Source: Escherichia phage SDYTW1-F1-2-2_3 | Reading direction: 5' to 3' (one strand) | Sequence record: OR296290.1 | Length of the DNA: 64,000 bases | Shown: positions 24,532 through 24,921 of the stretch, one piece after another | How positions within the stretch are numbered: the first letter of the stretch is position 1 | Layout: the number at the start of each line of letters is the position of its first letter | Program-made: the position numbers and the translations under genes | The notes under the pieces: generated by a model | Database searches by the model: none | Told to the model about the DNA's origin: nothing | Seen by the model: the letters and a program-made list of their open reading frames with translations, nothing else

Positions 24532-24921
24532 TTATTCCCTAGAGCTATTATCGAACACTAAATCACCACAATACATAGGATTGGCATACCATTTTGGCAC
24601 CCCTTCGCTCTTACTCTGAAAGTAAGTCCCACTATACAGCGGAACATAATTCTTCTTAAGGGCACGTTTAGCAAGTCGCTCGCTTTCTCCAATGGCTTGC
24701 TTAGTCATCGGATTTTTATCACGAATCAGCTTTACATAACGTTTATAAGGTTTCTCCTGTTTTAATAGTACCGGAATCCACTCAAACTGGTTCTTTTGTC
24801 TTATCACCTGTTCAGCGGTCAGTTTTCGTTGAGCCATTCTATTTATTACGGTATCCGCAACTAAAGCCTTACATGCGGTTGGCTGGTTCCCTGCCTCATA
24901 ATAAATAGTCAATGTCAACAT
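24532..24921 (-). CDS. cell-wall hydrolase (SleB/Hydrolase_2-like)
   Basis: IYYEAGNQPTACKALVADTVINRM resembles SleB-type amidase/lytic enzyme motif. Confidence 0.55.
   Translation of the reverse strand: MLTLTIYYEAGNQPTACKALVADTVINRMAQRKLTAEQVIRQKNQFEWIPVLLKQEKPYKRYVKLIRDKNPMTKQAIGESERLAKRALKKNYVPLYSGTYFQSKSEGVPKWYANPMYCGDLVFDNSSRE

Follow-up and report, generated by a model that had tools for sequence, protein, structure and literature searches.

gp117, a SleB-type cell-wall hydrolase with a probable CUG start in the leftward arm of a phiEco32-like phage, as a candidate auxiliary endolysin

Genes and wall-active proteins of the window

We analyzed a window of 64,000 nucleotides from Escherichia phage SDYTW1-F1-2-2_3 (OR296290.1), a phiEco32-like Kuravirus (Gordonclarkvirinae). 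A 4-kb stretch around the gene studied here is matched at 90–95% identity by 99 phage records, nearly all from phiEco32-group phages of Escherichia or Shigella. The two gene arms, leftward and rightward, come together near 31–32 kb (window 31000–32000), so the window includes the point at which the genome ends of the phiEco32 layout join. The predicted wall-active proteins and the holin are encoded as follows.

24532–24921, minus strand: hydrolase ORF, intact, ATG start, 129 aa, single Hydrolase_2 (SleB catalytic) domain
46579–46797, plus strand: holin, 72 aa, one hydrophobic helix, PHROG 11161 'holin' (7e-49), in the late lysis cassette
46827–47318, plus strand: GH24 lysozyme, the canonical endolysin, PF00959 Phage_lysozyme (3.7e-32), adjoining the holin
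53246–54028, plus strand: SLT-domain protein, PF01464 SLT (2e-24), in the ejection-protein cluster

The 129-aa product of the minus-strand ORF is 100% identical to phiEco32 gp117 (phi32_117), SU10 gp116 (SU10_0116) and Paul gp123 (CPT_Paul_123), and is called gp117 below. GenBank lists it as a hypothetical protein in phiEco32 and SU10; Paul, ShigP1 and others label the homologue 'cell wall hydrolase' (PF07486), one record uses 'endolysin', and the SU10 copy appears in UniProt as 'Cell wall hydrolase SleB domain-containing protein'. Since an identical entry already carries a SleB-domain label, the recognition of a hydrolase at this locus is correct but not new, and its value for discovery is small, Hydrolase_2 lysins being common in Gram-negative phages. 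Judged from its sequence, gp117 is an ordinary, already catalogued accessory muralytic enzyme with predicted activity. What seems a useful addition to the known annotation is the likely mis-annotated CUG start behind a terminator described below.

A sequence-only reading of the window had counted three separate peptidoglycan-active proteins, and domain searches place PF00959, PF01464 and Hydrolase_2 at exactly those three loci. In phage YF01, the homologues of the holin and GH24 genes are given as the lysis proteins of the phage, and the SLT homologue is tabulated as a lytic transglycosylase in the category 'Ejection' (PMC9965538). The hydrolase had also been placed among early leftward genes, in agreement with the literature, which assigns the whole leftward block of phiEco32 and SU10 to the early class (PMC4281155, PMC8948821). 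Early expression of this individual gene is less secure, given the terminator-like hairpins in front of it and its want of a canonical start codon with a ribosome-binding site, both described below. Its neighbours are small early-arm proteins with no assigned function, and relatives with only 34–70% identity (L004, L006 and L103) also have it close to where the leftward arm starts. The accompanying description of such a gene as atypical was overstated: lysins of Gram-negative phages commonly have Hydrolase_2 as their catalytic domain (PMC8223927), and it stands beside a separate endolysin in GAP52/7-11 and in Phapecoctavirus. T7 gp3.5 and T4 e are further precedents for a muralytic enzyme produced ahead of the late phase.

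The gp117 sequence shows neither a signal peptide or lipobox nor a membrane helix or SAR-like segment; its maximal 19-residue hydropathy is 1.1 and its pI is 9.7. Just ~14 uncharged residues precede the catalytic Glu, short of the weakly hydrophobic transmembrane segment of ~18–20 residues at the N-terminus of a SAR endolysin, and the moderately hydrophobic N-terminus corresponds, in the structural model, to helix 1 of the SleB fold, which is buried. Exported relatives carry separate N-terminal signal or anchor extensions that gp117 lacks. The protein resembles canonical endolysins in being soluble, in belonging to a muralytic family and in having no secretion signal; it is not part of a lysis cassette, as it adjoins neither holin nor spanin and the holin–GH24 cassette lies on the opposite strand. 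It was absent among the proteins detected by mass spectrometry in SU10 preparations, which included some early proteins (PMC4281155).

The downstream neighbour (window 24036–24332, minus strand) is a 98-aa protein in which a membrane helix at the N-terminus (FLFVLCLTISVIGFIVL) precedes a coiled coil. It is called 'DNA helicase' in PHROG 12154 and in several GenBank records, a label that looks wrong. Its shape is i-spanin-like, and we considered it as an i-spanin partner; inspection of the overlapping ORF by eye gave no adjacent or embedded lipoprotein, and the candidate was dropped.

Family, fold and start codon of gp117

The family assignment made from the sequence held up. Pfam PF07486 (Hydrolase_2) matches residues 13–114 with 32.2 bits (curated cut-off 27, E 1.7e-7), and PHROG 12974 matches the full length (E 1.7e-89); no other Pfam match of note was obtained for this single-domain protein of 129–136 aa. 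A word-indexed protein search returned close relatives only, and a single-sequence PDB search gave nothing relevant and did not reach the SleB structures. An exhaustive profile search yielded 76 relatives, mostly single-domain proteins of 130–145 aa. A profile built from 37 homologues matched the catalytic domains of Bacillus cereus/B. anthracis SleB (4f55_A, E 4.7e-18; 4fet_B, E 2.1e-17) in an alignment spanning the whole domain (chain residues 15–127). An AlphaFold (AF2) model based on the 37-homologue alignment, with the 137-residue translation of 24532–24945 (one extra N-terminal Val) as input, reached a pLDDT of 93.5 and a pTM of 0.89. Its top three Foldseek matches in the PDB were SleB (probability 1.00, TM 0.56–0.64); all others had probabilities ≤0.1. 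Membership of the SleB/Hydrolase_2 family is near certain.

The catalytic residue is encoded as follows.

24895–24897, minus strand: GAG codon of the catalytic Glu, E9 in the 129-aa numbering, motif IYYEAGNQ

Only E9 and R28 are invariant among the 37 diverse homologues, with Q45 and A84 nearly so. In the profile alignment, E9 coincides with the Glu of 'YGESRGEP' in SleB 4f55/4fet, and the catalytic Glu is essential in SleB (PMC12331253).

The 5' boundary of the gene is less secure than its family. The ORF read from the sequence at 24532–24921 is a real gene, given its purifying selection and its wide presence in related phages; its annotated start is probably wrong. No Shine-Dalgarno sequence stands in front of the annotated ATG (24921), and the only one near gp117 lies further upstream, followed by an in-frame TAG (24951–24949).

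24952–24957, minus strand: Shine-Dalgarno sequence AGGAGG, 9 nt before the CTG and 30 nt before the annotated ATG
24532–24942, minus strand: proposed full coding region, 136 aa from the CTG at 24942–24940, 21 nt upstream of the ATG

The Shine-Dalgarno sequence is kept as AGGAGG or GGGGG, and the codon at 24942–24940 as CTG, in all Kuravirus copies. In the alignment this CTG falls on the TTG with which 136-aa relatives (L004 and L006) begin, eight codons earlier and 4 nt after AGGAGG; the deeper relative L103 also starts with TTG, after AGGA. The seven added codons (CTG ATA ACA ACG GCC CAG CTA, giving L/M-I-T-T-A-Q-L) hold four variable sites among the collected copies, all in third position and synonymous, even in pairs with a dS of 0.93, although the sites are few (~1 in 81 for position alone). 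The spacer preceding the CTG holds stop codons. In the 4E8/PAS59 group, CTT replaces the annotated ATG. The structural model agrees with a longer N-terminus: the first helix comprises residues 5–18, the first 10 residues have a pLDDT of 90, and this helix is completed by the added residues, as it is in almost every homologue. Because the added codons vary only synonymously, the AGGAGG is conserved and the CTG aligns with TTG starts, we propose a 136-aa product; the sequence comparison suggests that translation begins at the CUG, and initiation at the adjacent AUA is less likely. Near-cognate codons such as CUG and AUA initiate at ~1–2% of the AUG level in Escherichia coli (bioRxiv 10.1101/063800).

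Annotations disagree over where gp117 begins, giving 129 aa, 128 aa (next TTG, in the 4E8/PAS59 group) or 101 aa (internal ATG, in KBNP1711 and EP335); the 101-aa model would remove the catalytic Glu. The gene model is probably 21 nt too short in ~100 Kuravirus records, or 84 nt too short in some of them, which matters to anyone cloning gp117 as an enzybiotic. With such a start, gp117 would offer a natural case of probable CUG initiation in a coliphage.

Conservation and expression signals

Homologues with at least 80% identity occur in 98 phage records, that is, in ~98/99 related genomes, and all 129 residues are identical in >60 phages. Against diverged Kuraviruses, dN/dS is 0.08–0.19 (dS up to 0.93); the closest relatives differ by 6–7 synonymous and 0 non-synonymous changes. 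Purifying selection together with presence in 98 records shows that the ORF is not a chance one. Such strict conservation would be hard to explain if gp117 merely duplicated the GH24 enzyme.

A natural deletion was nevertheless encountered. Logan contig ERR14760741_353 (76,344 bp; L101 1462–1960) carries a clean 158-bp deletion, also found in L102 from another sequencing run. The last 49 codons are lost together with the stop, which fuses the frame to the intergenic spacer, and the remainder of that copy holds two extra amino-acid changes. This variant suggests that gp117 is dispensable; from its sequence, at least one natural phage appears to do without it.

The signals between the early promoters and gp117 all lie on its coding strand.

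28700–28728, minus strand: early sigma-70 promoter, TTGACA-17-TATAGT
28251–28279, minus strand: early sigma-70 promoter of the leftward operon, TTGACA-17-CATAAT
26378–26405, minus strand: terminator-like hairpin between the early promoters and gp117
25064–25081, minus strand: intrinsic terminator T1, after the 147-aa gene (25162–25605), annotated in 4E8
25007–25024, minus strand: conserved hairpin GCAAC-GGUCAUGU-GUUGC between T1 and T2, loop kept
24977–24996, minus strand: intrinsic terminator T2, 8-bp stem (7 G-C pairs) followed by a T6 run, annotated in Paul and 4E8

Both promoters, which lie in a non-coding spacer of ~1.8 kb (window ~27340–29100), match SU10 early promoters between CDS120 and CDS121 (PMC4281155, Table S2). 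Three terminator-like hairpins separate them from gp117, the last of which, T2, ends ~20 nt before its Shine-Dalgarno sequence. A sigma-70 scan from T1 to gp117 found no promoter, and between T2 and the start inspection by eye gave just TTGCCC-18-TTTTAT, in which the key A is missing; the next promoter annotated in the 4E8 record is downstream of the hydrolase. The terminators and the lack of a local promoter point to expression by read-through only and hence at a low level, as the sequence suggests. Our literature search found no Kuravirus infection transcriptome.

Three other routes to expression were considered and rejected. The consensus of promoters for gp36, the phage sigma factor (tAATGTAtA), has no match with ≤1 mismatch upstream of the gene, its nearest match lying at 24227–24235 inside the downstream gene. 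Between T1 and T2 lies a GAGTGTATTTA motif that 4E8 and PAS59 do not conserve as a promoter. Translational coupling to phi32_118 (24896–25015) is disfavoured by an ATG that is not conserved (GTA in 4E8) and by an ORF that spans the terminator.

The RNA between T1 and T2 shows conservation of its own. The 5-bp stem of the GGUCAUGU hairpin covaries through four variants (GCAAC/GUUGC, GCAAU/AUUGC, AGUGA/UCACU and ACAAC/GUUGU), and the hairpin is followed by UUUCAGGU and then by the intrinsic terminator. This hairpin may represent a small RNA or else serve the early operon as a 3'-end or processing element; an Rfam search returned no family for the RNA elements upstream of gp117. For the leader, RNAalifold proposed a different, long hairpin and a weak pairing to the Shine-Dalgarno region; as MAFFT had misaligned the PAS59 group there, this consensus was given no weight. 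The hairpin is missing where other DNA is inserted (phiEco32 and KBNP1711).

This site is an insertion hotspot. In phiEco32 it holds phi32_119 (798 nt, 'agglutinating adhesin', YadA-like), between the 147-aa gene and the hydrolase; that gene is absent here, the T1–hairpin–T2 module occupying its place (window 24921–25162 against L001 3093–4026), and KBNP1711 and L094 each carry different content.

Proposed role and relation to known systems

We propose that gp117 is a single-domain lytic transglycosylase of the SleB/CwlJ type, which would cut the MurNAc–GlcNAc bond of peptidoglycan by means of one catalytic Glu. As it has no export signal, this small, basic, soluble protein would be cytoplasmic and could reach the wall only once the late holin (46579–46797) has permeabilized the inner membrane. 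At the sacculus it may then assist the GH24 lysozyme as a non-essential auxiliary endolysin. Its output is probably low, given its position behind three terminator-like hairpins, a probable near-cognate CUG start, here paired with a conserved AGGAGG, and its absence from the proteins detected in SU10 preparations. We put the probability of this combined reading, a low-abundance, holin-dependent cytoplasmic SleB-type auxiliary endolysin, at about 0.5; the auxiliary role in lysis is moderately likely. A second lysis enzyme is also the best-supported of the functions that the sequence-only reading had offered.

Several features of the locus could instead mark decay, with gp117 a barely expressed relic of an older phiEco32/7-11 endolysin made redundant by the GH24–holin cassette: there is no canonical start codon with a ribosome-binding site, a strong terminator stands directly in front, the start differs between gene callers (129, 128 or 101 aa), and one natural copy has lost its C-terminus and gained two further amino-acid changes. 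We nonetheless consider decay unlikely. The low dN/dS, with only synonymous changes between the closest relatives, the invariant catalytic Glu and core motifs, the conserved Shine-Dalgarno sequence and upstream codons, and the retention of the gene in nearly all ~99 genomes all argue for function, and a separate endolysin in GAP52/7-11 too means that gp117 is not simply the ancestral endolysin. A role on the sacculus soon after infection, in pre-lysis wall remodelling or superinfection exclusion, would suit the position of the gene in an early-class block among host-takeover genes, kept at the start of the leftward arm in deep relatives. Superinfection control and host remodelling had both been suggested from the sequence; either needs access to the periplasm, and gp117 lacks a signal peptide, a lipobox, a membrane helix and a SAR domain alike. 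Its hydrophobic N-terminus is a buried helix of the fold, and the N-terminal extensions of exported relatives are missing, which makes an early role very doubtful.

A cytoplasmic or regulatory task apart from bulk lysis, acting on muropeptide recycling intermediates or by binding a host or phage protein, has a precedent in T7 lysozyme, which binds T7 RNA polymerase. The conservation of gp117 whichever main endolysin a phage carries, its early-arm position and its apparently low dose are compatible with such a task. Against it, the substrate-groove motifs and the invariant catalytic Glu favour glycan cleavage, for which no polymeric glycan is, to our knowledge, available in the cytoplasm, and no partner or extra domain is evident; we regard this alternative, too, as unlikely. 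A virion-associated lysin for genome entry would fit the muralytic domain and the small size, but is most improbable: gp117 went undetected by mass spectrometry in SU10 preparations (PMC4281155), the SLT protein of the late ejection cluster already fills that role, and the gp117 gene sits in the early arm, outside the structural module. There is also a slim chance that gp117 is a deliberately throttled enzyme with a conserved task of its own in phiEco32-like and 7-11-like phages, whichever main endolysin they use. If so, it might remodel the wall locally through an unrecognised export route or act at low dose at a defined moment of infection, and the covarying GGUCAUGU hairpin and the terminator would be part of its control.

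The relatives bear on how an auxiliary endolysin might be partnered. Phages 7-11 and GAP52 have been described as lacking holin and lysozyme genes (SU10 paper, PMC4281155). In Cronobacter phage GAP52, however, gp023 is a Hydrolase_2 protein (61.7 bits) and gp069 is an 'endolysin' of the Peptidase_M15_4 type; both 'endolysin' genes are in the leftward arm (L100 37320–37712 and L091 4974–5399), Rz-like spanins lie at 28363–28882, and no holin is annotated in the record within 1–40000 and 60448–70804. By annotation, 7-11 likewise has a Hydrolase_2 protein, an M15-peptidase endolysin and Rz-like spanins. The idea that gp117 was an ancestral sole endolysin displaced by the GH24 cassette was therefore rejected, GAP52/7-11 carrying both the M15-peptidase endolysin and the Rz-like spanins. 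With an M15 endolysin in these phages, Hydrolase_2 appears as the constant partner and the main endolysin as the exchangeable one. Phapecoctaviruses combine GH24 with Hydrolase_2, and another coliphage combines a chitinase-like lysin (Pfam Chitinase class I) with Hydrolase_2. Why Hydrolase_2 recurs beside a different main endolysin in several phage groups is a question that would be cheap to test; the literature we searched held no biochemical characterization of these phage proteins.

Among phage proteins, gp117 most resembles GAP52 gp023, 7-11 AEK82026, gp098 of Proteus phage Privateer, the protein of Erwinia phage Y2 and the second lysin of Phapecoctaviruses, which have the same domain, are small (130–190 aa) and basic, and are often encoded away from the holin and beside another endolysin, as gp117 is. 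It differs from them in sequence, being only 31–36% identical to the GAP52, 7-11-like and Privateer-type proteins, and in that the Kuravirus copy has CTG in place of a TTG or ATG start and stands directly behind a terminator. The classic muralytic enzymes made before the late phase are T7 gp3.5 and T4 e. They illustrate that a wall hydrolase made before lysis does no harm in the cytoplasm as long as the membrane is intact, and that translation is a level at which its synthesis can be restrained; their enzyme families differ from that of gp117, T4 e being a GH24 enzyme and the main endolysin, and T7 gp3.5 an amidase with a proven regulatory role. Among bacterial enzymes, SleB (4f55, 4fet) and CwlJ share with gp117 the PF07486 domain, the same predicted fold and a catalytic Glu in Y-x-E-A/S. 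SleB is only ~16% identical to gp117 in the structural alignment (TM ~0.6), and the gp117 model has extra helices between residues 56 and 95 (48–87 in the 129-aa form). SleB requires muramic-delta-lactam, which the wall of a Gram-negative host lacks. SleB also has a signal sequence and an N-terminal wall-binding domain (PG_binding_1); because gp117 has neither, its architecture is closer to that of CwlJ, a single catalytic domain without a wall-binding domain.
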